Shown here: positions 7,152 to 61,648 of the stretch, in pieces
Numbering within the stretch: the first letter of the stretch is position 1
Layout of the letters: each line of letters starts with the position of its first letter
Assembly (NCBI GenBank): GCA_000996895.1
Contig: LCBB01000002.1
Coordinates: 27,596-91,595 of the forward strand
Source of the DNA: a candidate division WWE3 bacterium GW2011_GWC2_41_23
GTDB lineage: Bacteria; Patescibacteriota; WWE3; UBA101185; UBA10185
Direction of reading: 5' to 3'
Length of the DNA: 64,000 bases
Notes under the pieces: model-generated
Databases searched by the model: none
What the model was told of the DNA's origin: nothing
What the model saw: only the letters and a program-made list of their open reading frames with translations
Made by a program: the position numbers and the translations under genes

Positions 7152-7409
7152 CTATTTGTTTTCCGGATATAAAACGTTACCTTCGAGGTCCTCAACAATA
7201 ATGGCTGTAGTGGGACATGACTTAGCACCCTTAATAATTTTTTCTGCCTCGTCCCAAGTTCCTTCTTTCGCGTACACAATACCGTTTGCATCCAAATCAA
7301 AAGTTTCCGGCGCGTGTATTATGCAAGTCGCCGCACTAATACATTTCTCGTTTATAACTTTAATTATTACTTTCGAATTCGGATTTTTATATGTAACAGT
7401 TTCTTCCAT
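7152..7409 (-). CDS. small ferredoxin (single Fe-S cluster type)
   Basis: 85 aa. KCISAATC ... AKSCPTTAI cysteine pattern, as in mono-cluster 3Fe/4Fe-4S ferredoxins. Directly upstream of the rSAM gene. Confidence 0.7.
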   Translation of the reverse strand: MEETVTYKNPNSKVIIKVINEKCISAATCIIHAPETFDLDANGIVYAKEGTWDEAEKIIKGAKSCPTTAIIVEDLEGNVLYPENK

Positions 7410-7411
7410 TT

Positions 7412-8425
7412 TTATCCTCCTAAATAATTTCCCGTTGTTTTATCGACGCCCCTCAATTTTAACGCAGGTTTTTTCAATATGCCAACTATAAAATTTATTC
7501 CGTACACTATATGAGTTAGAAAAATTCCTAAAGAAACATAAACCGCTCCTTTTAGATTTTTATCTTTGAAAAAAACGCGGGCACCTTCGCAAATCAACAT
7601 TGACAGGTATAGGACCAACCCGATTAGGTACAGCTCCCAAAGCCGGGGTAAGGCTAAAGATATGAAAGGACCCAGAACCAAGCCCGTTACAAACGCCGAA
7701 GGGGCAAAATAGGAGGGAAGCCTGGACGTTTCGGGAAAAATCCTGGCAAACTGGCCTCTGTGGCGTCCATACCTGGATATTTGCTTTAGGTGCGGGATAA
7801 AAAGGTTCCTTCTGTGATGATAAACCACCGGTGAGGGCTCATAGTTAAACTTTCTTCCCTGAGACTTTACCAGATCAAGACAAAGCTTGGTGTCCTCCCC
7901 AGGCCAAAATTCAACGGGAAAGCCCCCTACCCCATCGAATACTTTTTTCCGCACAAATAAGTTTACTGTGGGGTAGTCATCGATTTCCATACTTTTTCCG
8001 GGCGTATGCCTGTAAACCGTTCCGGCACTTGCCATCCAGGACTCCAGCACCCTCCCCGACATTTTTTCCAAAAACTCCGCATCTTTCGGTGTCATGGCGG
8101 GTCCCCCAAGAGCGTACGCTTCCTGATTTTCAAAAACTTCAACTGCCCTGTCTAACCAATCTTTTTCCGGATATGCGTCATCGTCCAAAAAAGCTAATAT
8201 GTCTCCGGAAGCTTTTGCCGCACCTATATTTCTTTTTTCACCGGGTCCTATAGGGCCGGAATTTATCAGGATAAATCTTGAGTCCTGAAAATCATAACTC
8301 TCTTCCTCGTCGGTAATGATTACTACTTCGAAATTTTGGTAAGTAAGTTCTTTCAGGTGAGAAATATTCTCTTTTAAAAACTCATTTATTTTTCTGACGG
8401 GAATAATAATGCTGAACTTATTCAC
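7412..8425 (-). CDS. glycosyltransferase family 2 with C-terminal TM segments
   Basis: FSIIIPVRKINEFLKEN...FEVVIITDEE, DDDAYP DxD motif, hydrophobic C-terminus. Confidence 0.8.
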   Translation of the reverse strand: MNKFSIIIPVRKINEFLKENISHLKELTYQNFEVVIITDEEESYDFQDSRFILINSGPIGPGEKRNIGAAKASGDILAFLDDDAYPEKDWLDRAVEVFENQEAYALGGPAMTPKDAEFLEKMSGRVLESWMASAGTVYRHTPGKSMEIDDYPTVNLFVRKKVFDGVGGFPVEFWPGEDTKLCLDLVKSQGRKFNYEPSPVVYHHRRNLFIPHLKQISRYGRHRGQFARIFPETSRLPSYFAPSAFVTGLVLGPFISLALPRLWELYLIGLVLYLSMLICEGARVFFKDKNLKGAVYVSLGIFLTHIVYGINFIVGILKKPALKLRGVDKTTGNYLGG

Positions 8426-9251
8426 CTCTCAACTCTCCTGTATTGACGCGCATATCCAACTCTTTGTCATAGACCCACTTTCTGTCACTTTTGTCATCGT
8501 AATATTTTAAAAAGTTCAATCTGTAGAAAACGGCGGCGGTGTCTAATAACATGTTTCGGATGTGCCGGTCGAGAAAGAAAAACGCCGAAAATGAGGATTC
8601 AGAAAAATCTATATTTACATATACCGGAGCTTCGTAAATATTATGAAAGCCCAAATGGCTTGCTACGGCCAATAGCTCGATGTCGAAAGCAAATTCTTTT
8701 ATTACAAGCCTGGGTAATACTTTGACCAGAACTTCCCGTTTAAATACCTTCAGCCCCGTCTGAGTATCCTTCACGTGTAAACCGAAAAGTAACCACACCA
8801 AAGTGTGATAGCCCCAGCTATAAACTCTTCTCACAATAGGATATTTAACCTTAGATGCCGGATGTTTTTTGCTCCCCACAATAATATCCGCTCCGTACCA
8901 TTCCATGTGTTCGAGAAGCATTGAAATTCCGTTGGGGTTAATGTCCATCCCTGCGTCTATGAACGAAACGTAATCGCCCGACGCCCTTGCCATACCGTAT
9001 CTGATTGCGTAACCTTTTCCTCTATTTCTCTCATAACAAAATGCTTTTAATTTTTTATTTTCCAAAGATTTTGCAATATCGTATGTTTTATCAAGCACGC
9101 CGTCGACAACTACTATAATTTCAAAATCCCACCTGGTTTGAAGCATAGTGTTCAGTATATTTTCAAGATCTTGTTTGATGGTTTTTTCTTGTTTATAGGC
9201 AGGGACAATTATCGAAACAAGTTTTTCAGATTTCTGTTGCTCTTTTTCCAT
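8418..9251 (-). CDS. glycosyltransferase family 2
   Basis: VSIIVPAYKQEKTI...FEIIVVVDGVLDKT and the IDAGMD motif. Confidence 0.8.
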   Translation of the reverse strand: MEKEQQKSEKLVSIIVPAYKQEKTIKQDLENILNTMLQTRWDFEIIVVVDGVLDKTYDIAKSLENKKLKAFCYERNRGKGYAIRYGMARASGDYVSFIDAGMDINPNGISMLLEHMEWYGADIIVGSKKHPASKVKYPIVRRVYSWGYHTLVWLLFGLHVKDTQTGLKVFKREVLVKVLPRLVIKEFAFDIELLAVASHLGFHNIYEAPVYVNIDFSESSFSAFFFLDRHIRNMLLDTAAVFYRLNFLKYYDDKSDRKWVYDKELDMRVNTGELRGE

Positions 9252-10503
9252 TGTTACCTACTATAAAAAATACGGAAAGAAGTACTAAGCTGATTATACC
9301 AGCATATATGTCGGCACTGATTACATTGTACAAAGTCGCGTGATTTGAGTTTATTAGTACATACTGGACGATTAAACCAGGCAGCAACAGTAGGAACACG
9401 GAGGTTCTATTGACGGCCAAAAAGAACAGTACCAGAAAGTTAATCACTATATATAAACCGATGAATAGCGAGAAAACCGGCAAGTACTCCACCGAGTTCA
9501 TAAATCTTTCTCCGAAAAATAGTCTGGTCAGAAAAGAAGGAAATAATGAGAAGGCTACCAATCCTCCGGCGACCAATACTAACTGAAGTGATAAAAATTT
9601 AAAAAACGCCCGGCCGTAATTTAACCCCCGCGCAGCCAGCGAAGAAATTGTAGGGAACATTACCGTAGAAACTGCACCGGCACCGAATAGAAAAATTTTA
9701 CCTAAAGTAACAGTACCCGCATAATATCCGGCCATTTCCGGATCAAAATATTTTTTAACTAGAATTATGTCTATATTATTTAGAAACATTAATCCGAAAC
9801 TTACAAACATTACCGGAAGGCTGAACGCGAGTAATCTTTTGTAGTCCTCCATTAAGCTGATGTTTTCAAAAACCGTTAAGTTCTTGCGTAAAATAAAAAA
9901 TGCGGTGAGTAGCGCTAACACACCGGCAACAAACATTCCTCCGAACGCTCCCGCTAATTTAAACCCTAATAAAACGGCAAGAACAGAAAAACCAAAACGG
10001 TAAAAGCTCGACAACACATTGAAAAAGGCGTAAGCACGGTATCTTAGCAAACCCTGAAAGTACGAGGCCGGTATTGCCCCTGCGAAAGCCAATCCCATCG
10101 AAATACCGTAAACGGTAATAAGAACGGTGTCATTGATTTTTAGTTGTTCCGAAATACTAAATCTAAGTAAAAAAATCGCTAGTGATATTCCAACCCCCAG
10201 CACCAGTGAAATTACAAGAAGTTTCCAGTACATTGCCGTAAGTTTTTTTGAATCCTGCCTCGAAGAAAGTTCCGAAACATATTTTATAAGTGAGACGCTG
10301 AAAACTCCCGCAGGAACACCCACCAAATATGAGAGAGAAATCAAAGCATTAAAAGTTCCGAAATCGGCAACTGAAAGTATTCTACCGAAAACAAATTGCA
10401 GTAAATACGAAAAAATAGAAGCCAAAACACTACCGACTCCTATATATACCGTACCCATCAGATACTTATTCGTTTTAACTTTTTGTATGAATGCCCCAAT
10501 CAT
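9226..10503 (-). CDS. polysaccharide/oligosaccharide flippase (Wzx-like, MOP superfamily)
   Basis: 425 aa with about 12 predicted TM helices and the length and pattern typical of Wzx. Confidence 0.65.
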   Translation of the reverse strand: MIGAFIQKVKTNKYLMGTVYIGVGSVLASIFSYLLQFVFGRILSVADFGTFNALISLSYLVGVPAGVFSVSLIKYVSELSSRQDSKKLTAMYWKLLVISLVLGVGISLAIFLLRFSISEQLKINDTVLITVYGISMGLAFAGAIPASYFQGLLRYRAYAFFNVLSSFYRFGFSVLAVLLGFKLAGAFGGMFVAGVLALLTAFFILRKNLTVFENISLMEDYKRLLAFSLPVMFVSFGLMFLNNIDIILVKKYFDPEMAGYYAGTVTLGKIFLFGAGAVSTVMFPTISSLAARGLNYGRAFFKFLSLQLVLVAGGLVAFSLFPSFLTRLFFGERFMNSVEYLPVFSLFIGLYIVINFLVLFFLAVNRTSVFLLLLPGLIVQYVLINSNHATLYNVISADIYAGIISLVLLSVFFIVGNNGKRATEI

Positions 10504-12092
10504 AATGAAGTTCTCTCGTACACTTTATATACTTCAACACCACGGAGATAGATGCTATCTACATACTTTAAACCGAACCTTTTCTCTTCCCCGGAAATGT
10601 CGCCCCATACAGGATAGACAAAGTACTTCGTTTTTACCGCGAAAGGCGTTAAGTCCTCGATGACCGCGTATCCCCCTATTACACGGAAAAACGGGTGAAT
10701 CTGGGTATAATATTTTTCCTGGAAAGCTACGGTTAAAGCATTTCCTGCCTCCGATCCGCTCAGAACTTTTTCTAAAGAAGTGTTGCCGTAAACAGGGTTC
10801 AATCCGTCTTCGGTCATTTTCTTTTCAAAAAAGTTTATAACTTGTCTTTCCCCGATTAGCCACTTAGGCTCCAAGACGTTTATTCCTGTTTTAAGGCCGC
10901 CGAACATCGGGTTGTAATACGACATGTAGTCAGGATGGAGGTAGAATGCAGGTATTGCCGTGGCAATTACCAAAGGAATAAATTTCAAGAAACTTCTTCC
11001 TTTTATTTTTTCCAGTAGCCAAATCCAGAACAAAGACGTGATTAAAGACAACATCATAATATTCGGTAAAATGTAACGGTCCAGTTTCTTTGACGGAATT
11101 ATTAACTGCGCGAAATAAAATCCTACAAACAACAAAACGTAGAGTAAAAACTTGCGTTGTCCTTCAACAAATATTTTTTTCCAAAATATTGCGGTTCCGA
11201 TTAAACCTAAAATTAAAAGATAAGAAGAGCGTAAACCCAAAACTACGAAATAGTAGAAAAAGCCCGGGTCTTCTACAAGCTTTCCGAAATAGAATTGTAC
11301 GTGCTCCCTTTCAATTCCGATTTCCGACACCCCGCGGTAGAGCGCTGCCAGAGCCTGCCCGGGAAATGCCCACATAGCGGGCCAAAATGCCGTGAACGTG
11401 GCTAAAAATATAAGAAGCCACAATCCGATTTTCGGTAAAGCGGTGACAATATTTTTCCTTCCTTCTATCAGCAATATAAGCCCCGCGTAAGGAAACATAA
11501 ATAATGCTGAGGTCTTGGTTAAAAAAGCCAGTCCCGCGAATACAGCCGAAACTACCAATCTTTTTTTCTTGCCCATATCCAGTGTGTAATAGTAAAGCCA
11601 CAAAAAAGACGCCAGCATAAACGTCGACATCAATCCTTCCAAATGGAACTCGCGGGTTAAAGCAAGGTAGAACGGTTCAAGAGAAAGTAAGGTAACTAAC
11701 AATAAAGCTTTTCTCGCCCCGAACAATTTTTTGAGTACGAAAAGTGAGAGACCCAGTGTTACCGCTATTGCAGTCACCACGAAGAGTTTTTGCACAAAGT
11801 GAAGCTGAAAAATCATCGCGACGCTATTTTCGGCAGGATTACTCTCGGAATAAAAATTGTAAACTTTTATTGCAGCCGTCCCGAGCCACATTAAAGTAAC
11901 CCCGGGATGATATTTCTGAATTGTCTTTTCTAAATCCCAAGTAAAGACACCGGTGCCGAAATCGTAGCTACGCGCCTTCCATTTCCATACATCGGTATTA
12001 AACGTATCGTTCCCAAGATCAGGAAGCCTGGAGGCTATAAAAAGAAGGGCAAAAAGTATTTCAAGTAAGTGGTTTTTAATAAATTTAATCAT
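10500..12092 (-). CDS. GT-C fold membrane glycosyltransferase (PMT/ArnT-like)
   Basis: Polytopic N-terminal part plus a soluble C-terminal domain. Shares the YHPGVTLMW motif with the 13575..15149 gene. Confidence 0.55.
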   Translation of the reverse strand: MIKFIKNHLLEILFALLFIASRLPDLGNDTFNTDVWKWKARSYDFGTGVFTWDLEKTIQKYHPGVTLMWLGTAAIKVYNFYSESNPAENSVAMIFQLHFVQKLFVVTAIAVTLGLSLFVLKKLFGARKALLLVTLLSLEPFYLALTREFHLEGLMSTFMLASFLWLYYYTLDMGKKKRLVVSAVFAGLAFLTKTSALFMFPYAGLILLIEGRKNIVTALPKIGLWLLIFLATFTAFWPAMWAFPGQALAALYRGVSEIGIEREHVQFYFGKLVEDPGFFYYFVVLGLRSSYLLILGLIGTAIFWKKIFVEGQRKFLLYVLLFVGFYFAQLIIPSKKLDRYILPNIMMLSLITSLFWIWLLEKIKGRSFLKFIPLVIATAIPAFYLHPDYMSYYNPMFGGLKTGINVLEPKWLIGERQVINFFEKKMTEDGLNPVYGNTSLEKVLSGSEAGNALTVAFQEKYYTQIHPFFRVIGGYAVIEDLTPFAVKTKYFVYPVWGDISGEEKRFGLKYVDSIYLRGVEVYKVYERTSL

Positions 12093-13594
12093 TAGCGGAT
12101 CATCTCCTCGACCGTGATATACGGGCCAATTCTACCTTTGTTAGACACCTCAAAAAGGGCTTTGCCCGAAGAAACTCCTTTGTCCGTTTCGATGTAATAA
12201 TAACGCGTTCCTTTAGGTAGTTTTGTTGCATCTTTCACCGCATTATTAAATACATACTTCGCTACGGGCTCTACATCCGAGCTTCCGTAAACTACCCGCG
12301 TACCCAGCGGAACTTCTGTCTCCAGAAATTTTTGCAACTCCAGCCGTGTGTCGTTTCTTAAAAATCTTACTGAATTATAAACGGACAAATAGAACGGAGG
12401 TAAAAATAAAATGAGAATTATCGGAAAATATAATGACTTCATTCCCAGACTCGCCTTATTCATAGCCCACACACAGAAATAACCGAATATGACCGAAAAG
12501 AACGGGTATGTAATGAAGTAATACTGCGAACGGCTTTTTTCGAAACCCGAAATGTAATAAATTAGGGCAAACACCGTAATTATTAAAAACATCAAAGACA
12601 CGTCAAACCTGGAAAATTTTCCTCTTAAAAATCTAATAAGAACAAGGCCGGAAGTTAGAAACAGCCCGATCAAAATTGTGTAACCTAGGTCATCCGATAT
12701 TTTAAAACTTATGTCCGTGAAAAATTTTACCAGATGCTCGGAAAAACTTACCGAACCCACGTTGGTGAACTGCCAAAAAGCTCCCACTGCCGAGTCGGTC
12801 CTGCTAAAGGTCTTATAGTCCAGGATGGCATACGGTGTACCGAGGACAAACCCCAAAAAGGCAAAAATGCCGGCTAAAAAGAGGTTCAAAATCGTCTTAA
12901 AATAGGGAAAATCGCCCCTTGTATCGGAAAGGCGTATTTTGACCAAAACCCAGCGTAAAAACGCCGCCAAAGGTACTGTAACGGCTCCCAGACCCCCGTT
13001 ATACTTGTTCGAGGCGGCGATCCCTATAAAAAACCCCGACATTATATAGTCTATAGGATATCCGTGGACAAGAATACGCGCGGCAAAGTAAACCCCCCAC
13101 GACATAAAAAACAACATGGGCGCGTCAGGGAGCGAATAGTGGGAATGCCACACGTGAAAAGGGATTAAGGTAAAAGCCAGGGCTGAGAGGAGACCGACTT
13201 TATCGCCGAACAGAACTTTTCCGGTTTTATATATTGGAATCACCGTTAACGCCCCAAGCACTGCCGCAAAAACGCGCGTTATAAAATAGAAAACGACGGT
13301 GTCGTCCCACATGAGCGGAAATATTTTAATCATAAAGTTTTGAAAGTTATAATCGATTGCGAGATCCCGGATCTTAGCAAAAACCAGATAAACAAAATAG
13401 TTAGCATATATAAAAAAGTGAGGCCAGTCGAAGTGACCGGGATTCGGATCAAACCTCACATCAAGAGCAGACCGGACTATTGTAGGTTCGTCGGGGTGGA
13501 AAATAAAAGGGAATCCGTGACTTATTCCCGCTAGTCTTAATGCAAGGGCAAGAAATATTATCAGGTATAAAAGACTACTTGTCTTCCTTGACAT
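12092..13594 (-). CDS. GT-C glycosyltransferase, family 39/83-like (ArnT/PMT_2)
   Basis: First-loop DE motif (FHPDEPTIVRSALD), about 11 TM helices, then a soluble C-terminal domain. Confidence 0.65.
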   Translation of the reverse strand: MSRKTSSLLYLIIFLALALRLAGISHGFPFIFHPDEPTIVRSALDVRFDPNPGHFDWPHFFIYANYFVYLVFAKIRDLAIDYNFQNFMIKIFPLMWDDTVVFYFITRVFAAVLGALTVIPIYKTGKVLFGDKVGLLSALAFTLIPFHVWHSHYSLPDAPMLFFMSWGVYFAARILVHGYPIDYIMSGFFIGIAASNKYNGGLGAVTVPLAAFLRWVLVKIRLSDTRGDFPYFKTILNLFLAGIFAFLGFVLGTPYAILDYKTFSRTDSAVGAFWQFTNVGSVSFSEHLVKFFTDISFKISDDLGYTILIGLFLTSGLVLIRFLRGKFSRFDVSLMFLIITVFALIYYISGFEKSRSQYYFITYPFFSVIFGYFCVWAMNKASLGMKSLYFPIILILFLPPFYLSVYNSVRFLRNDTRLELQKFLETEVPLGTRVVYGSSDVEPVAKYVFNNAVKDATKLPKGTRYYYIETDKGVSSGKALFEVSNKGRIGPYITVEEMIR

Positions 13595-15149
13595 ATATTC
13601 TCCAGTACTCCAATCCGTTAACGTAAAGCGATGAATCTTTCCTGAACCTGGTTCCGCTTTTTAAAACTTTTTCGGGCATTTCTTCGTTTATTCCTAAGAC
13701 TAATAGTTCGTAATCGCTTACCCCGTTAATCCTTATATCCGCTACTTTTGAGTTCGAGTAAATTGCTTTCATAGGCTTTGTGTCTATAAAACCCAGCTCC
13801 GGTTCACCGCCGTACTTCTCTATTATGTAGTCCTTAAGTGCCGGAACCGCGATGCCGAATGGTTTTTGGGCAATAATCCTGTTTGCCGATTCAGCAGTAC
13901 CGAACAACGGGCTGGTATATGTAAAGTAGTAAGGAAAATCCACGACCGCGGGTAGGATGTAAAAAAGAGTAAATGAGAATATTGCCAGGCTCATGAATAT
14001 TTTCTTTAACCTGGTCGTTTTTATTAATAAGTAAAATCTTAAAATTCCATGAGCAGCTAAAAGCGCTAAAAACGGATAAAGCGGAAGCATGTATCTATCA
14101 AGTTTTTTGGACGGGTAAATCATGACGAAAAAATATCCGAGATAGAACATGGCAAGATAAAGGTAAGGGTTGGAATATTTAGAGGCAAAAATTTTCATAA
14201 CCGCAGTAGCGGACTTTGCGCATTTTATTAAACAAAGCGCGAGTCCGGTTATTAAAAACGGCGTAACTTTAATTAGAAGCACCAGCGGATAAAATAAAAT
14301 CCCCGCGTCCTGTGTTGTTTCCCCGAATACTATCTGTTCGTGACCTTTTCTTATTCCTACTCTTTCAGACTCGGCAAATATCTCCGTCATGTAGTAAACC
14401 GGCCTTACCCACAAAGCGGGAAATAATAAAAAGGTTGTTACGATAAACGCACCCAATATTGTACAAAAGTATTTCAAAAGTCCTCTGAGATCTTTTTTAT
14501 TCGCAAAGTAAGCTGTTGAAAAAATCAATACAAAAAAGAGAGCGCCTATACCGATGCTTTTGGTAAGAAATGAAAGTGACAAGAACACCCCCGTCAGAAT
14601 TGTCCCCTTATAGCTAAAATTCCTGAGATTTAACCAGCTTATAAGCAAACCTATAAGCACAAACAGCGCCAGCAGTATATCCATGTGGTACAACCTGGAA
14701 TTGCCCATAAAAAAGGGTTCCAGGGAGAAAAGAAACACCGAAAAATAGGCTATTTTGAACCCAACCACCCGCGTTAAATAATATAAAAGAATAAAGGTCA
14801 GAATTAACTGGGCAGCCACCACCGAAACTTTAGCCACGGTATTAAAGGCCAGGAAGTTGAATTGATCGTAAGTGGTTATCCCCGTGATTTGTTTATAGAT
14901 CTCAATCGGCACTCCTGTAATCCACATTAAAGTGACGCCCGGATGATAATGCTGGTAAGTTCGCTCAAAATCCCCCGATTTTAAACCGACAATAAATTGC
15001 TGCGACCTATAATGCCAGTTAACTCCGTCGGGGTTTATTTCGTCGGGGCCAAGAAAAAGAAAACGCGTTAAACCAAAGACCAGTATAAAAAAAATGATAG
15101 CCACGTGCTTATTGGTAATAAGACCGGTTAAACGTTCCCGTATTTTCAT
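13575..15149 (-). CDS. GT-C fold membrane glycosyltransferase (PMT/ArnT-like); paralog of 10500..12092
   Basis: LGPDEINPDG first-loop DE motif and YHPGVTLMW. Polytopic. Confidence 0.6.
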   Translation of the reverse strand: MKIRERLTGLITNKHVAIIFFILVFGLTRFLFLGPDEINPDGVNWHYRSQQFIVGLKSGDFERTYQHYHPGVTLMWITGVPIEIYKQITGITTYDQFNFLAFNTVAKVSVVAAQLILTFILLYYLTRVVGFKIAYFSVFLFSLEPFFMGNSRLYHMDILLALFVLIGLLISWLNLRNFSYKGTILTGVFLSLSFLTKSIGIGALFFVLIFSTAYFANKKDLRGLLKYFCTILGAFIVTTFLLFPALWVRPVYYMTEIFAESERVGIRKGHEQIVFGETTQDAGILFYPLVLLIKVTPFLITGLALCLIKCAKSATAVMKIFASKYSNPYLYLAMFYLGYFFVMIYPSKKLDRYMLPLYPFLALLAAHGILRFYLLIKTTRLKKIFMSLAIFSFTLFYILPAVVDFPYYFTYTSPLFGTAESANRIIAQKPFGIAVPALKDYIIEKYGGEPELGFIDTKPMKAIYSNSKVADIRINGVSDYELLVLGINEEMPEKVLKSGTRFRKDSSLYVNGLEYWRIYVKEDK

Positions 15150-15150
15150 A

Positions 15151-16620: not shown

Positions 16621-16624
16621 ATTT

Positions 16625-18745: not shown

Positions 18746-19428
18746 TCCATAAATCTATATTTTATGAGTGTGAACAAAGCGTGTATTCCGTCCCGCCAGG
18801 TTATTTTTTTACCCTCGTTGTGAGTGCGCCCTCTGTATGAGATCGGAACTTCCCGTATCTTTAAACCCGACTTCAGTATTTTTGCCGTTATTTCAGGTTC
18901 AAAATCGAATCTTTCGGATTTTATATTTACATTTCTGACAAAATCTCCCGGCATTAGTTTGTAACAAGTCTCCATGTCGGTCAGCATTACACCGAAAAAA
19001 ATGTTTGTAATTAATGTCAGTATTTTGTTACCGAAGTAATGAAGAGTGGACATGTCCTCGTAGCTCCCTGAAAATCTACTTCCGTAGATTACTTGAGCTT
19101 TATGCTCGTCTAAGGCACGGATAAGTTTCAGGTAATCATTGGGGTCGTACTCAAGATCGGCGTCCTGCACAATTACATAATCACCGATCGTATGTTCAAA
19201 CCCAACCTTTAGAGCGTGCCCTTTTCCCCTGTTCTTCTCCTTATAATAAAAATGGACATCGGGATGGATCAATTCAAGTCCCTTTAAAATATCAATCGTA
19301 CCGTCGGTAGAAGCGTCATCTACCACGATTATTTCCTTATCCAAGCCCTGCACAGCTTTGATTTCGTTCAAAATTTTCTCTATCGTGTTTTTTTCGTTGT
19401 ACACGGGAACAACAATAGATAGCTTCAT
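18742..19428 (-). CDS. polyprenol-phosphate sugar synthase (DPM1/GtrB-like GT2)
   Basis: LSIVVPVYNEKNTIEKIL...IIVVDDASTDGT and VQDADLEYDP. 228 aa, soluble. Confidence 0.8.
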   Translation of the reverse strand: MKLSIVVPVYNEKNTIEKILNEIKAVQGLDKEIIVVDDASTDGTIDILKGLELIHPDVHFYYKEKNRGKGHALKVGFEHTIGDYVIVQDADLEYDPNDYLKLIRALDEHKAQVIYGSRFSGSYEDMSTLHYFGNKILTLITNIFFGVMLTDMETCYKLMPGDFVRNVNIKSERFDFEPEITAKILKSGLKIREVPISYRGRTHNEGKKITWRDGIHALFTLIKYRFMD

Positions 19429-19430
19429 AT

Positions 19431-20942: not shown

Positions 20943-22107
20943 ATATCCCGTCTATTCCTTCTATTTTTGTATTCCACGAATGTTTGGATCTAATGAGTTG
21001 AACATCGACGTCTCTTGGTGTGCCGGTAATTTCCAGAATTTTATTGGCGATTGTCTGCGGTTCCAGATTTTCGAGATAAAACACTCCTCTTATGTCCTCA
21101 CTGATTTTGAAACCGGAAACCAAACAGGGAATACCGCACGACAGTCCCTGCATAACAGCTTTGGGTAATCCCTCCCAGGATGATGGCAAAACAAATATAT
21201 CAGACACCTGATACGCGATGGGCACATGAGGATAAGGAGTATAACCGGTCTTTATTACTCGGTGCTCAACTTTTTTCAATTTCATCTGCTCATTAAGTTT
21301 TTCTAAGTATGTGGGATCGCCTGTACCTGAAAGAAGAAGTTTATAATCCTCCGGTAATAATGCGAGAGCGTCAATCAACAGGTGTATATTTTTTCTCTCG
21401 TTCATCACTCCGTGGTTAAGTATTACCTTGTCGAATCTGTCGAAACCGATTTCCTTACGGGATTTTTCTTTTTCTTCTTCGCCCACGGGCACAAACATTT
21501 CTGTGTTTACACCGGTCTCGATTAAGAAACATTTTGCCGGATTTGCACCGTAATATTCCTGCGCTTCCTTAACATTGTCCGCGCTAACAAAGACACACGC
21601 AGACGCAGCTTTTACAGCCATCTTGTCTGAGAAAACTGCCATCGGCCAACCCAACATTCTGGACATGGTTTTAATGGGTTTTCCTTGCTTTATAAAAGTC
21701 TCCCACCTGCCTTTCGCCGTGTTGTGAAAGTGTACTACTAAAGGTATTTTAAGTTCCTGAGACCACGGAAGATGCCTTTTTAAAAACACTCTATATGCGT
21801 AGAGCCACACAGCAAAGTGTCCGTGACAGTGAATAACATCGGGTTTATTTGTTTTTCTGTATTTTAAATAGCGGAAAAAAAGGACGACGCTGCTGGTAAA
21901 AAAAATGGTATTGGGGTACGGTTCGCGGTTTATTGCGTTTATTTCCAAACCATCAAGTTTTATGGGGCCGCCTGAGTTTGTCCACTGTCCGCAAAACAAT
22001 GTTACTTTATGCCCCTGCTTAAGTTGGGCAGCCGTGATTTCATATGGATGGGGAGCCAATCCCTGCCACGGATTCGGCCAATCGTAAACTATTCTTAAAA
22101 TATTCAT
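20914..22107 (-). CDS. glycosyltransferase family 4
   Basis: EGLPKAVMQGLSCGIPCLVS motif (E-x7-E region) of the GT-B/GT4 fold. Confidence 0.8.
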   Translation of the reverse strand: MNILRIVYDWPNPWQGLAPHPYEITAAQLKQGHKVTLFCGQWTNSGGPIKLDGLEINAINREPYPNTIFFTSSVVLFFRYLKYRKTNKPDVIHCHGHFAVWLYAYRVFLKRHLPWSQELKIPLVVHFHNTAKGRWETFIKQGKPIKTMSRMLGWPMAVFSDKMAVKAASACVFVSADNVKEAQEYYGANPAKCFLIETGVNTEMFVPVGEEEKEKSRKEIGFDRFDKVILNHGVMNERKNIHLLIDALALLPEDYKLLLSGTGDPTYLEKLNEQMKLKKVEHRVIKTGYTPYPHVPIAYQVSDIFVLPSSWEGLPKAVMQGLSCGIPCLVSGFKISEDIRGVFYLENLEPQTIANKILEITGTPRDVDVQLIRSKHSWNTKIEGIDGIYDFAIKNYI

Positions 22108-23297
22108 ACTTTTAATTCCTTAAATATCTCCTCATAAGAGTCTAACATCTTATCAAGGGTAAATCTCCCCATTGCCTCATTTACGGCGTTAACACCCATC
22201 CTCCGTGCCAAATCCGGGTTATCTTTCAATTCGTTTAACTTACTCCTGAATACGAAGAATTTACCGGGATTTACAAGATACCCCGTTTCTCCGTCTGTCA
22301 CGGCATCGGAAACCCCGCCCAAATTAAAGGCTACAATGGGAAGCTGTCCGAACATAGCTTCAACCAGAACCATCGGAAATCCTTCCAAACGTGAAGTCGG
22401 AAAAACAAAAGCATCAAATCTCGCGGGGTTATACATCCGCAATACCTCGGCGTAATCGAGCTTGCCCCTCAATGTTATTCTTCCTCCGCTTTTTCCCGAA
22501 ATAACGCCCAGCTCTTCCTGCAAATCCCCGGAACCTACAATATCCAAAGTAAAATCTTTCATATCTTCGCGGACAATTATTTCAGCGAGCTTCCCGATAC
22601 CTTTTGAGCGGATGAGTTGACCCACATACAGTAAACGGAATTTTCCGACGGCTCCTCTATCGCTTTCAACTGTTTCAACCTGCAAAGGTTTTATCCCGTT
22701 ATTTATAACCCTAACTTTGGCATCCTCGACAAACGTTTCATCAATCAAGGCTCTCTTTACAAAATTAGACACCGCCACAATTACACTGGAACCGTGAACA
22801 AATTCTCTTTGTACGGTAAAGAAATTTTTCAAAACATGCGGAAGGTCAAGAACAGCTTTTAATAAGCCTTTGATCGACGGGTCACTCTTAAACTTCGTTT
22901 GGAGCTCCCCGATCTTTGTTCCGTGCGAAATAGAAATTATGGGCAAACCGAATTCTTCCTTATTTCTGATTACACCCACTGCCCCCGAACTCTGCCCAAC
23001 GATTAACTCGAACTTTTCCTCCGGCTGTAATTCACGGAATACTTCGTACGATTTCTCAACCCAGCTGTCTTTTTTTGAAACTGTCACCGAACTATAATGA
23101 GCCTTTTTGCACTCAACAAAAATGTATTTGACTCCGTTTTCAATTGCCAGTTCTTTTTCTTTTATAATTCGGGGAGTAAACACCGTAACTTTGTGTCCGC
23201 GTAAAGCCAGCCCCTCGCATAAAAGCTTATTCTGAGTTTCCAGTCCTCCGTAAGAACCGCTGAAAGTCGTGGATTTAATAAATACGGCAATCTTCAT
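22104..23297 (-). CDS. glycosyltransferase family 4
   Basis: EGFPMVLVEAMFGQLPIVAFNLGGVSDAVTDGETGYLV. Confidence 0.85.
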   Translation of the reverse strand: MKIAVFIKSTTFSGSYGGLETQNKLLCEGLALRGHKVTVFTPRIIKEKELAIENGVKYIFVECKKAHYSSVTVSKKDSWVEKSYEVFRELQPEEKFELIVGQSSGAVGVIRNKEEFGLPIISISHGTKIGELQTKFKSDPSIKGLLKAVLDLPHVLKNFFTVQREFVHGSSVIVAVSNFVKRALIDETFVEDAKVRVINNGIKPLQVETVESDRGAVGKFRLLYVGQLIRSKGIGKLAEIIVREDMKDFTLDIVGSGDLQEELGVISGKSGGRITLRGKLDYAEVLRMYNPARFDAFVFPTSRLEGFPMVLVEAMFGQLPIVAFNLGGVSDAVTDGETGYLVNPGKFFVFRSKLNELKDNPDLARRMGVNAVNEAMGRFTLDKMLDSYEEIFKELKV

Positions 23298-24515
23298 TTA
23301 AATAGACTCCTTTATAATAAGATCTTCCATATGGGCAACATTTACTTCTATGTTAAATTCTGCAGTAACTTTCCCGTACGCTTCTTCCGCCAACCTACCG
23401 GCAAGTTCCTTATTATTCAAAATACTTTTCAGACTCTCAGCCAAAGCAACCGGATTCCTTTGAGGAACTACAAGCCCGCTCACTCCGTTCTCAAGAAATT
23501 CCTTAGTACTTCCTGAATCCGTGGCCACAATGGGTAAACGCGAAGCTGCTGCCTCTAACAAGACATTTGCTATACCGTCGGCGTCACCTTCTTCGGTGTT
23601 TATGCCTGAAAACACAAAAACATCACTTTCAGAGTAATATCTTTGGGTTTCGGAAAACGGAAGGCCGGTGCCCCCACCTAATATTTCAATTTGTTCCGAC
23701 AATCCTAAGGCTCCGATTTGCTCACTAAGTTCTCCGTACAAACTTCCCGGACCGATGATAAGCATTTTGAATTCCACACCGTCGTCATGAAGAATTTTTG
23801 CTGCTTCCAGTAAATATTTTTGACCCTTCTTTTCTTCGAGACGCCCGATGTTTAGTATTAAAGGGATTTTAGCGGTATGTTCCGATCTCCCGAACTTTGA
23901 TGTGTCTAACCCATGATATTTCAACAGAATTTTGTGAGAGTAGTCAGAACCAACTGCCCCGACACAACTCTCGTGTGCGTGTTTATTGCATATCAAAACA
24001 AATGCTGCGTTCTCCGACTTTTCTTTCATACAATGGGGGTTTACCGTCACATCCTTAGCGTGAGCGGAAATTGCGTAGGGAACGCCGAGCACAAGCGCGG
24101 CCACCATTACAATAGTGCTGGACTCGCTCATAAAGTGAGCAATTATAAAGTTAGGTTTAAACGGGGAAAATATCTGCGCGTATCCCATTCCTTTGAGCAA
24201 AGTGTAATACTGACGAATTTTGGGCATATGACACGAATTTAAAGTATCCAAAGCCTTGGAAATATTTGTGCCGGAAGTAAAAAAATACCTCAGCGAGAAT
24301 AAAACATCCGGAAGGGAAAGTCTTCTATACCTAACCAGGGGTTTGAGAACAGGACTGAACTCACCCGAACCTTTCAATAAAGACATTATCAAAAGATCCA
24401 GGTTTCCTCTTTCGGCTATTTTAGCGAGCTCACGTTCGATGAAAGTTTCCGTCAGCACCGGAAATTCCGGTACAAATACAAGAAGCCTCTTTTTAGTGCT
24501 GCCCGGTTGAACCAT
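23298..24515 (-). CDS. glycosyltransferase family 4
   Basis: DADGIANVLLEAAASRLPIVATDSGSTKEFLENGVSGLVV. Confidence 0.8.
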   Translation of the reverse strand: MVQPGSTKKRLLVFVPEFPVLTETFIERELAKIAERGNLDLLIMSLLKGSGEFSPVLKPLVRYRRLSLPDVLFSLRYFFTSGTNISKALDTLNSCHMPKIRQYYTLLKGMGYAQIFSPFKPNFIIAHFMSESSTIVMVAALVLGVPYAISAHAKDVTVNPHCMKEKSENAAFVLICNKHAHESCVGAVGSDYSHKILLKYHGLDTSKFGRSEHTAKIPLILNIGRLEEKKGQKYLLEAAKILHDDGVEFKMLIIGPGSLYGELSEQIGALGLSEQIEILGGGTGLPFSETQRYYSESDVFVFSGINTEEGDADGIANVLLEAAASRLPIVATDSGSTKEFLENGVSGLVVPQRNPVALAESLKSILNNKELAGRLAEEAYGKVTAEFNIEVNVAHMEDLIIKESI

Positions 24516-25878
24516 TGGTGTTAAGTAGTACTGTTTGATACAGATTCCTTGTATCTATTTTAACCATACCGTTAGTCCTTTTACCAACAGCAAAATATGT
24601 AAAGCCCGCGTCTTCAACCTTTTTTCGGTCAAGAAGATTTCTTCCGTCGAAAATAACCGGCGATTTTAGTAGTGACTTCACTTTATCTAACTCGACGGTG
24701 GCAAATTCTTTCCACTCAGTAAGCACGAACAAAGCATCGGCTTCCTGCATAGTTTCATACTTGTCTAAACAATACTCGACATTTACAGAACCTAGCACTT
24801 GTTTGGCGTTATACATTGCCTCAGGATCATAAACTTTAAGGGTTGCGCCCAAACCACGTAATTTTTTACACAGTTCAATTGAGACCGAGTCTCTTATATC
24901 ATCGGTGTTTCCCTTAAAAGCCAATCCCAATATTGCAAATGTTCTTCCGGAAAGATTTTTACCAAAATGTCTGAGTACTTTATTCATGAAGTTCTCTCTT
25001 TGAGCTATGTTAACTTCCATAACGCTTCTTAAAAGCTTAAAGTCGTAGTCCTGATCGGTTGAAGTTTTGTACAAAGCGGCAACATCTTTCGGAAAACAGC
25101 TTCCGCCGTATCCGATACCTGCGTTAAGAAATGCCGCACCCACTCTTTTGTCCAAACCCATACCTTTTGCCACTACCGAAACATCCGCTCCGGCTCTCTC
25201 ACAGATTTGAGCAATTTCATTAATGAAAGAGATCTTGGCTGCCAAAAATCCGTTTGAAGCGTATTTAATCATTTCTGATGATCTGAGATCACACTCAACA
25301 ATGGGGGCGTTCAGGTGTTCATAAAGCCTTCTCATAACTGAATGGGCTTTCTCTGTCTCGGCACCAATAACTGTTCTGTCTGGCTTAGCCATATCTTCAA
25401 CTGAAGAACCTTCCCGTAAAAATTCGGGGTTGGACGCAACATCAAATTCTAACTGTGAGTTCGGAAGATTCTCTCTGATAATCATTTTTACTTTTTCGTT
25501 AGTTCCTACCGGAACTGTGCTTTTTGTAACAATGACTTTATAACCGTTCATGCTCTTTCCGATATCTTTTGCAACTTCCCACACTTGTGAGAGATCTGCA
25601 GCACCTGTATCGCTTTGAGGTGTACCGACGCAAATGAAAACAATTTCAGCGTCCTTAATACCATCAGCAATAGAAGTTGTGAACGAAAGTCTATTCTGTG
25701 CAATATTTCTTAAAACTATCTCAGATAGACCGGGTTCATAAATAGGCATTTCGCCTTTTTTAATTCTATCTATCTTTTCGGTGTCTATATCAACACCAAC
25801 AACATCATTACCCCAATCGGAAAAAATTGCTGCACCGACCAAACCTACATAACCTGTACCTATTACGCATAGTTTCAT
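24493..25878 (-). CDS. ugd: UDP-glucose 6-dehydrogenase (nucleotide-sugar dehydrogenase)
   Basis: N-terminal VIGTGYVGLV NAD fold and the catalytic GYGGSCFPKDV motif. Confidence 0.9.
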   Translation of the reverse strand: MKLCVIGTGYVGLVGAAIFSDWGNDVVGVDIDTEKIDRIKKGEMPIYEPGLSEIVLRNIAQNRLSFTTSIADGIKDAEIVFICVGTPQSDTGAADLSQVWEVAKDIGKSMNGYKVIVTKSTVPVGTNEKVKMIIRENLPNSQLEFDVASNPEFLREGSSVEDMAKPDRTVIGAETEKAHSVMRRLYEHLNAPIVECDLRSSEMIKYASNGFLAAKISFINEIAQICERAGADVSVVAKGMGLDKRVGAAFLNAGIGYGGSCFPKDVAALYKTSTDQDYDFKLLRSVMEVNIAQRENFMNKVLRHFGKNLSGRTFAILGLAFKGNTDDIRDSVSIELCKKLRGLGATLKVYDPEAMYNAKQVLGSVNVEYCLDKYETMQEADALFVLTEWKEFATVELDKVKSLLKSPVIFDGRNLLDRKKVEDAGFTYFAVGKRTNGMVKIDTRNLYQTVLLNTNGSTGQH

Positions 25879-25929
25879 AGTTTATAAATTTCACCCCGAA
25901 ATATATACTTTATGACTTTATGAGGGGCG

Positions 25930-26688
25930 TTACTTGGCAGTGTTGTAAAGGCCCATAATATCGTGCAGCCTTATCTTCAAGACGTCAAATCCCATCTTAA
26001 TGGAGTCACGTACGGGGCTTACCCGCGTGGTCTTAACGTGTGTCCAGACTATCGGAACTTGTTTGACATTATACCCTAGTTTCTTGGCTAAGTACAAAAC
26101 CTCCACATCCCATGCTCCGGTGTACGGTTTGTCCAATTCCTTGGTGTTTTTACCGTAAACTTTCATTCTCCCGAAGATATCCTTAGCTACAGTACCCTTG
26201 AAGAGCTTAAAACCGCACTGGCTGTCTCTTATTCCGGGCAAAGCTACAATTTGTATCATGAGATTAAACGCTCTTCCCATCGCGTGTCTGTAAAAAGGTT
26301 CTCCCACCCTTTCCGCACCAATTCCTTCTCTCGAAGCGATAGCAATATCAAAATTCTGATCGGTAACCCATACGGCCAATTTTTTTAATTCCGTCATAGG
26401 AGCTGAAAGATCGGCGTCGGCCATGTATACCAAATTTCCGACCGCCGCATTCATCCCGGTTAAAACCGCGAACCCTTTTCCTTTATGAGGATTTCTAATC
26501 ACTCTGACCTCGGGATTTTCCACGGAGTACTCTTCTACTATGGAAGCTGTGGCGTCTTTACTACCATCATCAATGACAATAATTTCAAAACTTTGACAAA
26601 ACGTTCTCATAAAGTTCACAGCCTGCGTTAAAGATGATGATATTTTGTCCGCTTCATTGTACGCGGGGATTACTACCGAATAATCCAT
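25930..26688 (-). CDS. polyprenol-phosphate sugar synthase-like GT2
   Basis: YSVVIPAYNEADKI...FEIIVIDDGSKDAT and ADADLSAP. Confidence 0.8.
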   Translation of the reverse strand: MDYSVVIPAYNEADKISSSLTQAVNFMRTFCQSFEIIVIDDGSKDATASIVEEYSVENPEVRVIRNPHKGKGFAVLTGMNAAVGNLVYMADADLSAPMTELKKLAVWVTDQNFDIAIASREGIGAERVGEPFYRHAMGRAFNLMIQIVALPGIRDSQCGFKLFKGTVAKDIFGRMKVYGKNTKELDKPYTGAWDVEVLYLAKKLGYNVKQVPIVWTHVKTTRVSPVRDSIKMGFDVLKIRLHDIMGLYNTAK

Positions 26689-26694
26689 ATATTG

Positions 26695-27819
26695 TTACCT
26701 TTTATTAACCTTCCAAATTATTTTACTATAAACTGTGAAATTCCATATCAACCCGAAAATTATACCAATTAAAAAGGCTGTGTTTGAAACGAGAGCTGTA
26801 TCTCCGAACGTGCTAACGGAAAATCCTACAAGTCTTGAACGGACCGCTATAGGTATAAAGGAAGATACGATGTACAAAATAAATCCCAGCACTTTCTTTT
26901 GTACCCCGTCGATTTTTCTTTCCCCGAACGACCAATAGTTATTCAATAAAAAGGTCACTATCATGGCTACAAAACCCGAAGCCACGGCAGAATCACGTGA
27001 GCTCAATACACTAATTCTGAAAATATTGAACAGCCCGGCGTCAACTATAAATCCTATTCCGCCGACTACGAGAAATCTTACAAAGTTTTTATTCTCGTTG
27101 TACCTAAGGGTAACGACAACTCTCAAAGAATCCCGCAAATTATTTTTTTCCATTTTTGAATCACCGCGGTCACGTAATCCGAATTTTATCGGAACTTCTT
27201 TTATTTTTGCGCCCAATCTGTGCATTTTGAACAGAAGGTCAATTTTGTATGCAAACCCCTGCGACAATATTGCTTCCAGAGGCAACTTATCTACAAATCC
27301 TTTTACGCGCGACGCTTTAAAACCTGAAGTGAAATCATTAACATCAAAGATTCCCAGAACAATTTTTGAAAAAATGTTTCCGCCTACACTGAAAAATTTA
27401 CGCTTAAACGCCCATTCATCCGGAATGCTCCCGCCCTTTGTAAACCTCGAACCAATAACATAGTCGTAACCGTTATCTATCTCATCGACAATTCTGACTA
27501 CGTCTTTCGGGTCGTGCTGAAAATCCGCATCCATTTCAACAATAACATCCGCTTTTAGTTCATTCATGGCTTCTTTGAACCCATAAACATACGCGGCTCC
27601 CAGGCCCGCTTTGACTTTTTCCATCAGCAAATGAATATTCGGATTGTTTTTCATTTTTTCACGTACTACTTCCGCGGTGCCATCGGGTGAATTTCCCTCG
27701 ACCACAAGAATATGGAAATCGTGTTGAGATCTTTTTAAAAATTCCTGCTGAAGAACATCTGCAAGCCTTCCGATATTATCTGCTTCGTTATAAGTAGGTA
27801 TTACAATAACTATTTTCAT
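26695..27819 (-). CDS. GT2 (DPM-synthase-like) fused to a C-terminal GtrA-like membrane domain
   Basis: Start moved to the internal MKIVIVIPTYNEADNI. The 27936 start would overlap the upstream gene. EMDADFQHDP motif. C-terminal FLVVGGIGFIVDAGLFN matches the GtrA family. Confidence 0.8.
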   Translation of the reverse strand: MKIVIVIPTYNEADNIGRLADVLQQEFLKRSQHDFHILVVEGNSPDGTAEVVREKMKNNPNIHLLMEKVKAGLGAAYVYGFKEAMNELKADVIVEMDADFQHDPKDVVRIVDEIDNGYDYVIGSRFTKGGSIPDEWAFKRKFFSVGGNIFSKIVLGIFDVNDFTSGFKASRVKGFVDKLPLEAILSQGFAYKIDLLFKMHRLGAKIKEVPIKFGLRDRGDSKMEKNNLRDSLRVVVTLRYNENKNFVRFLVVGGIGFIVDAGLFNIFRISVLSSRDSAVASGFVAMIVTFLLNNYWSFGERKIDGVQKKVLGFILYIVSSFIPIAVRSRLVGFSVSTFGDTALVSNTAFLIGIIFGLIWNFTVYSKIIWKVNKR

Positions 27820-27821
27820 AT

Positions 27822-28082
27822 TTAGAAACTCAGGACAGTATACAGCAGGAAAAAAATGAGTACGCCAAACACCGCGTACTCGGCTGCGATAAATTTGGTC
27901 AGCCTTCCTTCCACAGCATGATGAATAATCCCCCAAAGAACATAACCGAAGGAAGCAACCCCGGATAAGAATATCAGTACCCTGTGGTCATACCTGAAGT
28001 AGTAAAACAACAAACTTATTATGGCAGCGAGGGACAACAAGACTGCATATTCAACTAAGTGTGTGTCAGTCTTTTCTTTCAT
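27822..28082 (-). CDS. small two-helix membrane protein (86 aa)
   Basis: ATGA start/stop overlap with the CAP-domain gene at 28079-28082. Two hydrophobic helices. No family. Confidence 0.5.
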   Translation of the reverse strand: MKEKTDTHLVEYAVLLSLAAIISLLFYYFRYDHRVLIFLSGVASFGYVLWGIIHHAVEGRLTKFIAAEYAVFGVLIFFLLYTVLSF

Positions 28083-61644: not shown

Positions 61645-61648
61645 TAAT

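Follow-up and report, generated by a model that had tools for sequence, protein, structure and literature searches.

What is assembled by the dense run of glycosylation genes that lies beside the ribosomal operon of candidate division WWE3 bacterium GW2011_GWC2_41_23, and is this run a variable coat locus or a fixed property of its lineage? We analysed a stretch of 64,000 nucleotides of contig LCBB01000002.1 (positions 27,596 to 91,595; hereafter the window, in whose own numbering all coordinates are given) together with the 10-kb flanks of related loci, at locus level only. An earlier reading, made from the letters of the window alone (the sequence-only reading), had described there a locus exceptionally rich in membrane glycosyltransferases of the GT-C fold. 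Our best reading, to which we give a probability of about 0.6, is that these genes form a housekeeping operon of the WWE3 (Katanobacteria) lineage, in which modules of GT-A synthase, flippase and GT-C are stacked and an envelope glycoconjugate is made. This reading is carried by gene content, by the folds and conserved acidic residues of the proteins and by deep synteny, and it relates the operon to the GT-A/flippase/GT-C systems of Gram-positive bacteria and to actinobacterial lipoglycan assembly, and not to a variable O-antigen or capsule locus. The product is most likely a lipoglycan or a wall-associated polysaccharide.

The genes are listed below from the upstream end, each with the matches on which its description is based; in the text they are named by their lower coordinate.

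27822-28079, minus strand: small membrane protein of 85 amino acids, its translation showing a GIIHH motif and three helices by prediction; first gene of the operon
26695-27819, minus strand: predicted polyprenol-phosphate-hexose synthase, a GT-A domain with a four-helix GtrA/DPMS membrane domain (Pfam GT2 and GtrA_DPMS_TM)
25930-26688, minus strand: soluble DPM1/ArnC-like GT2 of 252 amino acids, candidate second synthase, adjoining Ugd (Pfam GT2)
24493-25878, minus strand: UDP-glucose 6-dehydrogenase (Ugd), expected to supply UDP-glucuronic acid (three UDPG_MGDP_dh domains)
23298-24515, minus strand: cytoplasmic GT4 (GT-B), EpsE/WcaL-like (Glycos_transf_1, 106 bits; NCBIfam EpsE, 136 bits, below cut-off)
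22104-23297, minus strand: cytoplasmic GT4 (Pfam; no PADLOC match)
20914-22107, minus strand: cytoplasmic GT4 (Pfam; orthologues at the equivalent position in relatives)
19431-20942, minus strand: GT-C of PMT_2/PMT type, in a two-gene cassette with 18742 (PMT_2, 35.8 bits, and PMT, 25.1 bits, above cut-off)
18742-19428, minus strand: soluble DPM1-like GT2 of 228 amino acids, candidate donor synthase for 19431 (Pfam GT2, 121 bits)
16625-18733, minus strand: DUF2079 protein of 702 amino acids (Pfam DUF2079, 119 bits; AlphaFold2 and Foldseek)
15151-16620, minus strand: Wzx/MOP flippase (Polysacc_synt_3, 63.7 bits; Polysacc_synt, 61.4 bits)
13575-15149, minus strand: GT-C, paralogue of 10500, with a conserved D41 (Pfam PMT, 24.6 bits, above cut-off)
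12092-13594, minus strand: GT-C with an H-x-D35-E36-P motif in its first loop (Pfam PMT_2, 47.7 bits)
10500-12092, minus strand: GT-C glycosyltransferase (Pfam PMT_2; AlphaFold2 model; Foldseek matches all GT-C)
9226-10503, minus strand: second Wzx/MOP flippase (Polysacc_synt, 70 bits)
8418-9251, minus strand: soluble GT2 of 277 amino acids, role uncertain (Pfam GT2, 87 bits)
7412-8425, minus strand: membrane-anchored GT2 of 337 amino acids with C-terminal hydrophobic helices (Pfam GT2 and Glyco_trans_2_3; hydropathy)
7152-7409, minus strand: small 4Fe-4S ferredoxin, 2 bp 3' of the last GT2 (Pfam Fer4_13)
5467-7077, minus strand: B12-binding radical SAM enzyme, distantly HpnJ-like (Pfam Radical_SAM and B12-binding)

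The open reading frames (ORFs) listed for the window run unbroken on the minus strand from 28079 to 5467, about 20 tightly packed genes in some 21-23 kb, which amounts to roughly 2.5% of a 0.88-Mb genome. From the 85-amino-acid ORF to the ferredoxin gene the intergenic distance is -29 to +8 bp at 15 of 17 junctions; the junction between 25930 and Ugd measures +51 bp, and that between the ferredoxin and radical SAM genes +74 bp. Such spacing is the layout of a single operon. The genes from about 28079 to at least 7152 are one operon, which probably reaches on to 5467. All 16 ORFs that the sequence-only reading had named between 7412 and 27936 lie on the minus strand where it had placed them, each with a significant Pfam match, and the span also holds two GT2 genes, 7412 and 8418, beyond those it had described. 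Scans with consensus promoters and terminators gave counts equal to the shuffled expectation and thus no information either way, and scans of the window for tRNA and Rfam families found nothing. A gene for a CAP/YkwD-domain protein (28079-29068, minus strand) separates the first glycosylation gene from the secY/adk end of the ribosomal operon, in the window and likewise in three distant relatives.

A scan of 185,579 species-representative genomes gave 77 loci, nearly all of them in WWE3 or allied Patescibacteria and among them that of the complete 878-kb genome RAAC2_WWE3_1. Wherever the locus is long enough to judge, in about 50 species-level genomes, the order GT-C(19431)-GT2(18742)-DUF2079-Wzx-GT-C(13575)-GT-C(12092)-GT-C(10500)-Wzx-GT2(8418)-GT2(7412) is colinear at 35-70% protein identity. 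A recurrence of this extent is not due to chance; a synteny comparison across genomes of the Candidate Phyla Radiation (CPR) had been proposed as a check. The upstream half is kept too: the loci around distant DUF2079 orthologues carry the CAP gene, the 85-amino-acid ORF, the DPMS-type gene, a GT2, usually Ugd and three GT4s, with the operon directly beside the secY/ribosomal operon. The ferredoxin gene is found at the equivalent position in 29 related loci and the radical SAM gene downstream in 39. Ugd is missing from the operon in one relative, and locus L038 is without an orthologue of 12092. Between the first Wzx and GT-C 13575, 48 of 62 loci have an LPG_synthase_TM (MprF-flippase-like) gene (for example at 13519-14406 of locus L080); in the window the genes ending at 15149 and starting at 15151 abut with a 1-bp gap and without it, the clade of the window having cleanly lost this gene. 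Furthermore, 19431 and 18742 are jointly absent from five genomes (L011, L045, L053, L068 and L074), where a GT4 gene abuts DUF2079. Their joint gain and loss suggests a two-gene synthase/transferase cassette, that is, a pair of donor synthase and transferase like those tabulated in PMC8035078. A gene order and a chromosomal site kept across about 50 species are the opposite of what hypervariable serotype or capsule loci show, and the operon is best read as a housekeeping feature of the WWE3 lineage. As the same order and site persist across a class-level lineage, the product would be a core component of the envelope and not an optional coat.

By predicted structure and profile comparison, the five multi-pass proteins of the operon are GT-C enzymes, although not demonstrable members of GT39, GT83 or STT3. 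Pfam gave PMT_2 or PMT matches for 10500, 12092, 13575 and 19431, as expected from the earlier annotation of these four as GT-C. A hypothetical protein of WWE3 bacterium GW2011_GWF2_41_45 has the very sequence of the 10500 protein (100% identity); nearly all relatives of 10500 carry the label WWE3 or Patescibacteria, and automated annotation calls them 'glycosyltransferase family 39 protein'. The AlphaFold2 model of 10500 is of high confidence (pLDDT 92.5, pTM 0.93), and its 37 best fold matches in the PDB, found with Foldseek at TM-scores up to 0.55, are all GT-C-fold proteins: ALG12, ArnT, STT3, ALG9, AftA, AglB, Pmt4, DPY19, PglB, Pmt1/2, AftB, Emb, AftD and PIG-U, a subunit of GPI transamidase. 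PimE is also given among its structural matches, and ArnT is the second-best (TM-score about 0.49 to 5f15 and 5ezm). For the DUF2079 protein, whose gene starts at 18733 (the database copy begins 4 codons after the TTG start), the model (pLDDT 86) has a GT-C-fold membrane domain; the 19 structures that Foldseek ranks highest are without exception GT-C (AglB, STT3, DPY19, PglB, ArnT and Pmt4), with a TM-score to AglB of only about 0.4. The C-terminal domain of the model, large and extracytoplasmic, contains much beta-sandwich and has weak small-domain matches to the glycan-binding Wzt domain and to generic Ig-like folds, so that the Wzt-type match is only a hint. The sequence-only reading would have been refuted had the membrane proteins fallen outside GT-C, for example as O-antigen polymerases or ligases only; structure prediction and fold search gave GT-C instead, and no WaaL, Wzy or SEDS structure is among the significant fold matches of 10500 and DUF2079. 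We found no literature on DUF2079, and the model would provide the first structural assignment of DUF2079 proteins as GT-C.

The remaining three proteins join the GT-C group through Pfam scores above cut-off and through profile-profile comparison. The four PMT_2-type proteins are interlinked with hhalign probabilities of 80-100%: 12092 reaches 96-97% against the 10500, 13575 and 19431 families, 19431 reaches 96% against 12092, and 13575 reaches 100% against 10500, to which it is 31% identical over 426 amino acids by blastp. DUF2079 has no significant hhalign link to the PMT_2-type families (<20%), and its GT-C status thus rests on its model. A recent tandem duplication of the GT-Cs was rejected as an origin of the array, given that 10500 and 13575, at 31% identity, are the only paralogues detectable by blastp. 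Family alignments place an invariant Asp 10-15 residues past the first helix in all five proteins: D34 in 10500, D41 in 13575, D35-E36 in 12092, D34 in 19431 and D44 in DUF2079. In 19431 it belongs to an E31-W-G-D34 motif invariant in 33 of 33 orthologues, in DUF2079 to an invariant K42-F-D44 after the first helix, and the 10500 family keeps D34, YHPG, E139-P140, K193 and KLDRY. These Asp residues sit where GT-C catalytic residues are found and are candidate catalytic residues, the positive-inside rule and the models both pointing to a location outside the membrane.

Assignment to a named GT-C family was looked for and not obtained. No operon GT-C matches PMT_4TMC at E <= 0.01 or any NCBIfam PMT model, and the loop-1 Asp-Glu pair of GT39 occurs in 12092, one of the five; the likeness to protein O-mannosylation put forward in the sequence-only reading thus does not hold at the level of GT39 membership. 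Likewise, there is no NCBIfam ArnT match at E <= 0.01 and no arnA, arnB or arnD in the window, and the WWD[YWFN]G pattern of STT3/AglB/PglB is in none of the six GT-Cs (these five and 52283, described below). The only NCBIfam match of oligosaccharyltransferase type covers a 55-residue stretch of 12092 with 26.7 bits, against a cut-off of 450.

Donor synthesis would be the task of the GT2 enzymes. From end to end, 26695 can be aligned with the DPMS of Pyrococcus furiosus (5mlz; residues 37-394 against 20-358 of 374, with E 1e-39), and its orthologues have 372-376 amino acids. This alignment and these lengths place its true start at the ATG at 27819, giving 374 amino acids, in place of the TTG at 27936 chosen earlier, and the space freed upstream holds the conserved 85-amino-acid ORF. 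The description of 26695 as a GT2 fused to GtrA holds for the domain match, GT2 with GtrA_DPMS_TM, but the full-length alignment identifies the GtrA-like part as what in a DPMS of archaeal type is the membrane domain, with its four helices, and not as a fused flippase. For 18742, 25930 and 26695, which had been called DPM1/GtrB-like, the closest solved relatives are indeed DPMS, ArnC and GtrB. The architecture of a lipid-phosphate-sugar synthase is complete in 26695 and partial in 18742 and 25930, which match these enzymes over the catalytic domain and adjacent region only and are without a membrane segment. A role of the three as polyprenol-phosphate-sugar synthases fits these similarities.

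AglJ is the best NCBIfam similarity of 26695 and also of 18742 (E 9e-32, below cut-off); the latter matches DPMS over residues 1-205 and then ArnC and GtrB in the PDB, has conserved DxSxD and QDADLE motifs, and with 60-93% identity across related loci is the most conserved of the operon proteins compared. For 25930 the best NCBIfam match is ArnC (E 2e-19, 70 bits against a cut-off of 529) and the best PDB matches are, in order, DPMS, ArnC and GtrB; its place beside Ugd suggests a donor derived from uronic acid. The 8418 protein is related to 18742 and 25930 by blastp (E 1e-19 to 1e-20), is without the canonical second Asp of DxD and has mixed PDB matches; it is possibly a fourth DPM1-like enzyme. 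The 7412 protein carries DDD and Q-x-x-R-Y motifs and weak NCBIfam matches, MftF best, AglG second and also EpsD, and its matches in the PDB were confined to the N-terminal half, which is generic to GT2 enzymes. The 85-amino-acid protein has no Pfam or NCBIfam match, and two distant relatives have an ORF of this length at the equivalent position; the protein may serve the soluble GT2s as their partner in the membrane, or it may be a small flippase.

The other components are clear at family level and agree with the first annotation. Both Wzx/MOP proteins, 9226 and 15151, score above the Polysacc_synt cut-offs and have many hydrophobic segments, and the three GT4s (20914, 22104 and 23298) follow from Pfam. 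Ugd has all three UDPG_MGDP_dh domains (E values of 1e-67, 1e-35 and 3e-32) and scores 469 bits with TIGR03026 against a cut-off of 190, and 563 bits with the TuaD model, below its cut-off of 700. Its position beside the ArnC-like GT2 suggests that glucuronic acid may be loaded on the lipid carrier. The radical SAM enzyme has HpnJ as its best NCBIfam match (152 bits against a cut-off of 577), shows higher conservation than the GT-Cs among related loci (63-92% identity), and its probable role is to modify the product on a sugar or lipid.

On the housekeeping reading, the pathway, whose donors, step order, flippase roles and acceptor we infer, would begin on the cytoplasmic face, where 26695 together with 25930, 18742 and perhaps 8418 would load polyprenol phosphate with single sugars taken from nucleotide sugars, among them a uronic acid from the product of Ugd. 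Building a lipid-anchored primer glycan would fall to the three GT4s together with the membrane GT2 (7412). The two Wzx proteins would carry lipid-linked species to the outer face, to which the MprF-flippase-like protein of most relatives could contribute, and there each of the five GT-Cs would add a specific residue or linkage to the growing envelope glycoconjugate by means of the conserved Asp of its first outer loop. A fuller version, which we put forward only tentatively and with clearly less confidence, takes the operon to assemble the main glycopolymer of the Katanobacteria/WWE3 envelope, one that would define the lineage: a lipoglycan or wall polysaccharide that five GT-Cs make on the outer side of the membrane from polyprenol-phosphate sugars, with DUF2079 as a polymer-binding transferase and the B12-radical-SAM enzyme tailoring the product.

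The nearest precedents are the multi-component systems of Gram-positive bacteria (CsbB/GtcA/YfhO, GtlA/GtlB, CsdA-F, GtsABC and GacI/J/K/L), in which a GT-A makes a C55-P-sugar, a GtrA- or Wzx-type flippase moves it and a multi-pass GT-C, often PMT_2, uses it, with synthase and GT-C genes adjacent; a soluble GT-A may depend on a small partner in the membrane, like GacI on GacJ (PMC8035078). Under the definition given there for multi-component transmembrane glycosylation systems, the operon qualifies, all three component types being present, adjacent and co-conserved; they may act jointly on one acceptor. The soluble GT2s and the 85-amino-acid membrane ORF resemble GacI/GacJ. Unlike the Gram-positive systems, whose single modules are scattered in the genome, this operon brings together five GT-Cs, three to four synthase-like GT2s and two to three flippase candidates; one of its GT-Cs is of DUF2079, a family without a characterised member, and it is conserved lineage-wide and not specific to strain or serotype.

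Actinobacteria assemble lipomannan, lipoarabinomannan and arabinogalactan with PimA/PimB' (GT4), Ppm1 (DPM1-like), PimE, MptA/B/C, Emb and the Aft GT-Cs, and in Corynebacterium lipomannan has a glucuronic acid-diacylglycerol anchor. The division of labour is alike: GT4s prime a lipid anchor, a DPM1-like enzyme makes the polyprenol-phosphate sugar and many GT-Cs extend the chain outside, the uronic-acid anchor of Corynebacterium has its parallel in Ugd, and AftA, AftB, AftD, Emb and PimE are among the structural matches of 10500, with orthology not established. The actinobacterial GT-Cs, however, belong to Pfam families of DUF2029, Arabinose_trans and DUF3367 type and their genes are mostly dispersed, whereas the families here are PMT_2 and DUF2079, and the window showed no genes for phosphatidylinositol or decaprenyl-phosphoarabinose. 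In the ArnC/ArnT and Rgt systems, the latter (RgtE/RgtA-D) decorating lipid A and core in Rhizobium, the lipid-phosphate sugar derives from UDP-glucuronic acid and several ArnT-like GT-Cs share one donor and modify different positions; an ArnC-like GT2 adjoining a UDP-glucose dehydrogenase is the point of likeness. WWE3 carries no lipid A or lipopolysaccharide genes (PMC3812714). In the window, moreover, there are no ArnA, ArnB or ArnD genes and no ArnT equivalog match. N-glycosylation in Haloferax volcanii proceeds through AglJ, AglG, AglM, AglR, AglS and AglB. AglJ is the top NCBIfam similarity here and Ugd also matches the AglM model; that pathway has a Wzx-like flippase, and a GT-C by which a sugar from a lipid-phosphate donor is added after flipping, and a phosphoglycosyltransferase is unnecessary. 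The lineage here is bacterial, however, and no oligosaccharyltransferase of STT3/AglB type was found. With the protein O-mannosyltransferases (GT39, PMT) and the TMTC-type TPR GT-Cs the likeness lies in the PMT and PMT_2 matches and in 52283, which joins a GT-C domain to TPR as TMTC does, and the difference in the lack of PMT_4TMC and MIR domains.

Several points weigh against our reading. Wzx usually flips diphosphate-linked oligosaccharides, for which a priming enzyme would be needed, and none was found in the window. A lipid-linked glycan could be what the soluble GT2s act on, as ordinary transferases and not as lipid-phosphate-sugar synthases, and the TPR-fused GT-C at 52283 makes a protein acceptor possible. 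Matches of NCBIfam models to named enzymes are all far below cut-offs, and the models reach TM-scores of only 0.36-0.55 against GT-C enzymes of solved structure. Searches of the PDB by sequence, with 10500 and 12092 singly and with 40- and 35-sequence profiles of the 10500 family and of DUF2079, returned nothing relevant, which is why structure prediction and fold search were used.

The alternatives differ mainly in the acceptor and in the fixity of the locus. General O-glycosylation of proteins, with the GT-Cs passing sugars from polyprenol-phosphate donors directly onto Ser/Thr residues of proteins that the cell secretes (pilins, S-layer proteins or sortase substrates, for instance), is known from PMT/Ppm1 in actinobacteria, TMTC in animals and TfpW on the Pseudomonas pilin. 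It would account for the PMT and PMT_2 matches, for the PMT-like conserved loop-1 Asp-Glu pair of 12092 and for the genomic setting, as the operon abuts secY and the TPR-fused GT-C adjoins signal peptidase I and is near SecA and SecY; sortases, large surface proteins and type IV pili are also encoded in WWE3 genomes (PMC3812714). Against this, the five GT-Cs have neither a PMT_4TMC nor an NCBIfam PMT match, three GT4s, two Wzx and a membrane GT2 would be superfluous for single-sugar O-mannosylation, and the beta-sandwich domain of DUF2079 has its Wzt glycan-binding-domain match, weak and generic as it is, so that we regard protein O-glycosylation as unlikely. A pathway of archaeal style, in parallel with Haloferax AglJ/G/I/E/M/R/S/B, would have a DPM1/AglJ-like GT2 prime polyprenol monophosphate, GT2s and GT4s extend it (with glucuronic acid), Wzx flip it and one GT-C, DUF2079 being the candidate, transfer it en bloc, the others finishing the glycan. 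It has the merit of explaining the absence of a priming phosphoglycosyltransferase and agrees with the AglJ similarity of 18742 and 26695, the second-place AglG match of 7412, the AglM-like Ugd and the best structural matches of DUF2079, which are the oligosaccharyltransferases AglB, STT3 and PglB. Nevertheless, all Agl matches are far below equivalog cut-offs (for AglJ, 111 bits against 325), the WWDYG motif is in no GT-C and TM-scores to AglB reach only about 0.4; we consider such a pathway improbable, more so than O-glycosylation of proteins.

A variable Wzx/Wzy capsule or O-antigen locus, or one for phage defence or serotype conversion, in which the multi-pass proteins would be polymerases, ligases or gtrABC-like modules, typically contains what is also seen here, two Wzx-family genes with GT2 and GT4, and 22104 has a secondary Pfam match to GT4-conflict (37 bits). 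What decides against it is that the fold search puts the membrane proteins with GT-C and not with WaaL, Wzy or SEDS, and that the order is conserved in about 50 species at a fixed chromosomal site. In addition, the scanned ORFs of the window and the called genes of five related loci gave no match to Bac_transf, Glycos_transf_4, Wzy_C, Wzz, WaaL or LCP families; the operon with its 10-kb flanks and these five loci thus lack a priming phosphoglycosyltransferase, Wzy, Wzz and a ligase, and export machinery is also wanting at the locus, in agreement with the sequence-only reading, which had doubted a classical O-antigen or capsule function. PADLOC found no defence system match for ten operon proteins, upon which the idea of defence or serotype conversion was dropped. 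A variable coat locus is thus very improbable, and the housekeeping operon for an envelope glycoconjugate is the reading that we retain.

CPR bacteria are ultra-small, mostly uncultured and thought to live attached to other cells, and their surface chemistry is almost unexplored. The operon supplies enzyme targets, with one full-length DPMS-like synthase and five GT-Cs with a candidate catalytic Asp, and a genetic marker for studies of surface glycans, host attachment and enrichment or labelling in WWE3. If the tentative glycopolymer version were true, it would constitute a second, independent extracytoplasmic envelope pathway in the style of lipoarabinomannan and arabinogalactan outside Actinobacteria, in a genome of about 0.9 Mb. 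New here are a lineage-wide, GT-C-dense operon in a very small genome, with a predicted function, and the fold assignment of DUF2079. WWE3 has been described as unusually rich in glycosyltransferases, with polysaccharides, glycoproteins or a glycosylated S-layer proposed (Kantor et al. 2013, PMC3812714), and a complete peptidoglycan pathway was not found in that WWE3 genome (PMC3812714). Our search of the WWE3, Katanobacteria, GT39 and Patescibacteria literature found no publication on this operon, and the lipocone paper proved unrelated to it.

A sixth GT-C lies elsewhere in the window, 24 kb from the operon.

52283-53881, plus strand: GT-C with an N-terminal PMT_2-superfamily membrane domain and C-terminal TPR (TPR matches; family profile)

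Its TPR matches reach E values down to 1e-22. The N-terminal domain alone has no Pfam match, and the single sequence stays below 10% against GT-C profiles; the family profile, however, links it to the 10500 family (hhalign 94.6%, E 7e-8), PMT_2 is matched by 13 of 29 relatives, and D49-D50 of loop 1 is invariant, which upholds its earlier description as a TPR GT-C. The TMTC-specific DUF1736 was not found in 52283, and among 120 listed relatives it is on record for one distant protein, P0282. The TMTC-like architecture is real, with membership of the TMTC family not established. The gene stands among signal peptidase I (51701-52288), an rRNA methyltransferase (53829-54812) and SecA (54830-57388), and this protein-export neighbourhood would fit a protein acceptor. 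Near SecA there is also an undecaprenyl-diphosphatase gene (BacA/UppP, 256 bits; 57427-58251, minus strand), whose product returns the lipid carrier to use, which would suit a pathway based on polyprenol.

Further along the window, one open frame without an intervening stop (61571-63160, plus strand) joins ribosomal protein S4 (residues 29-171) to RNA polymerase alpha (residues 248-524). Neither a 503- nor a 529-amino-acid product is on record in the gene-call index, and the frame may be either a true fusion or an assembly difference.

At the other end of the window, beyond the radical SAM gene, we found a loosely linked accessory gene.

1858-2919, minus strand: further GT2 (Pfam; co-located in 17 related loci)

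It is surrounded by three SAM-dependent methyltransferases (329-982, plus strand; 1199-1870, minus strand; 2963-3610, minus strand), which are poorly conserved among related loci.

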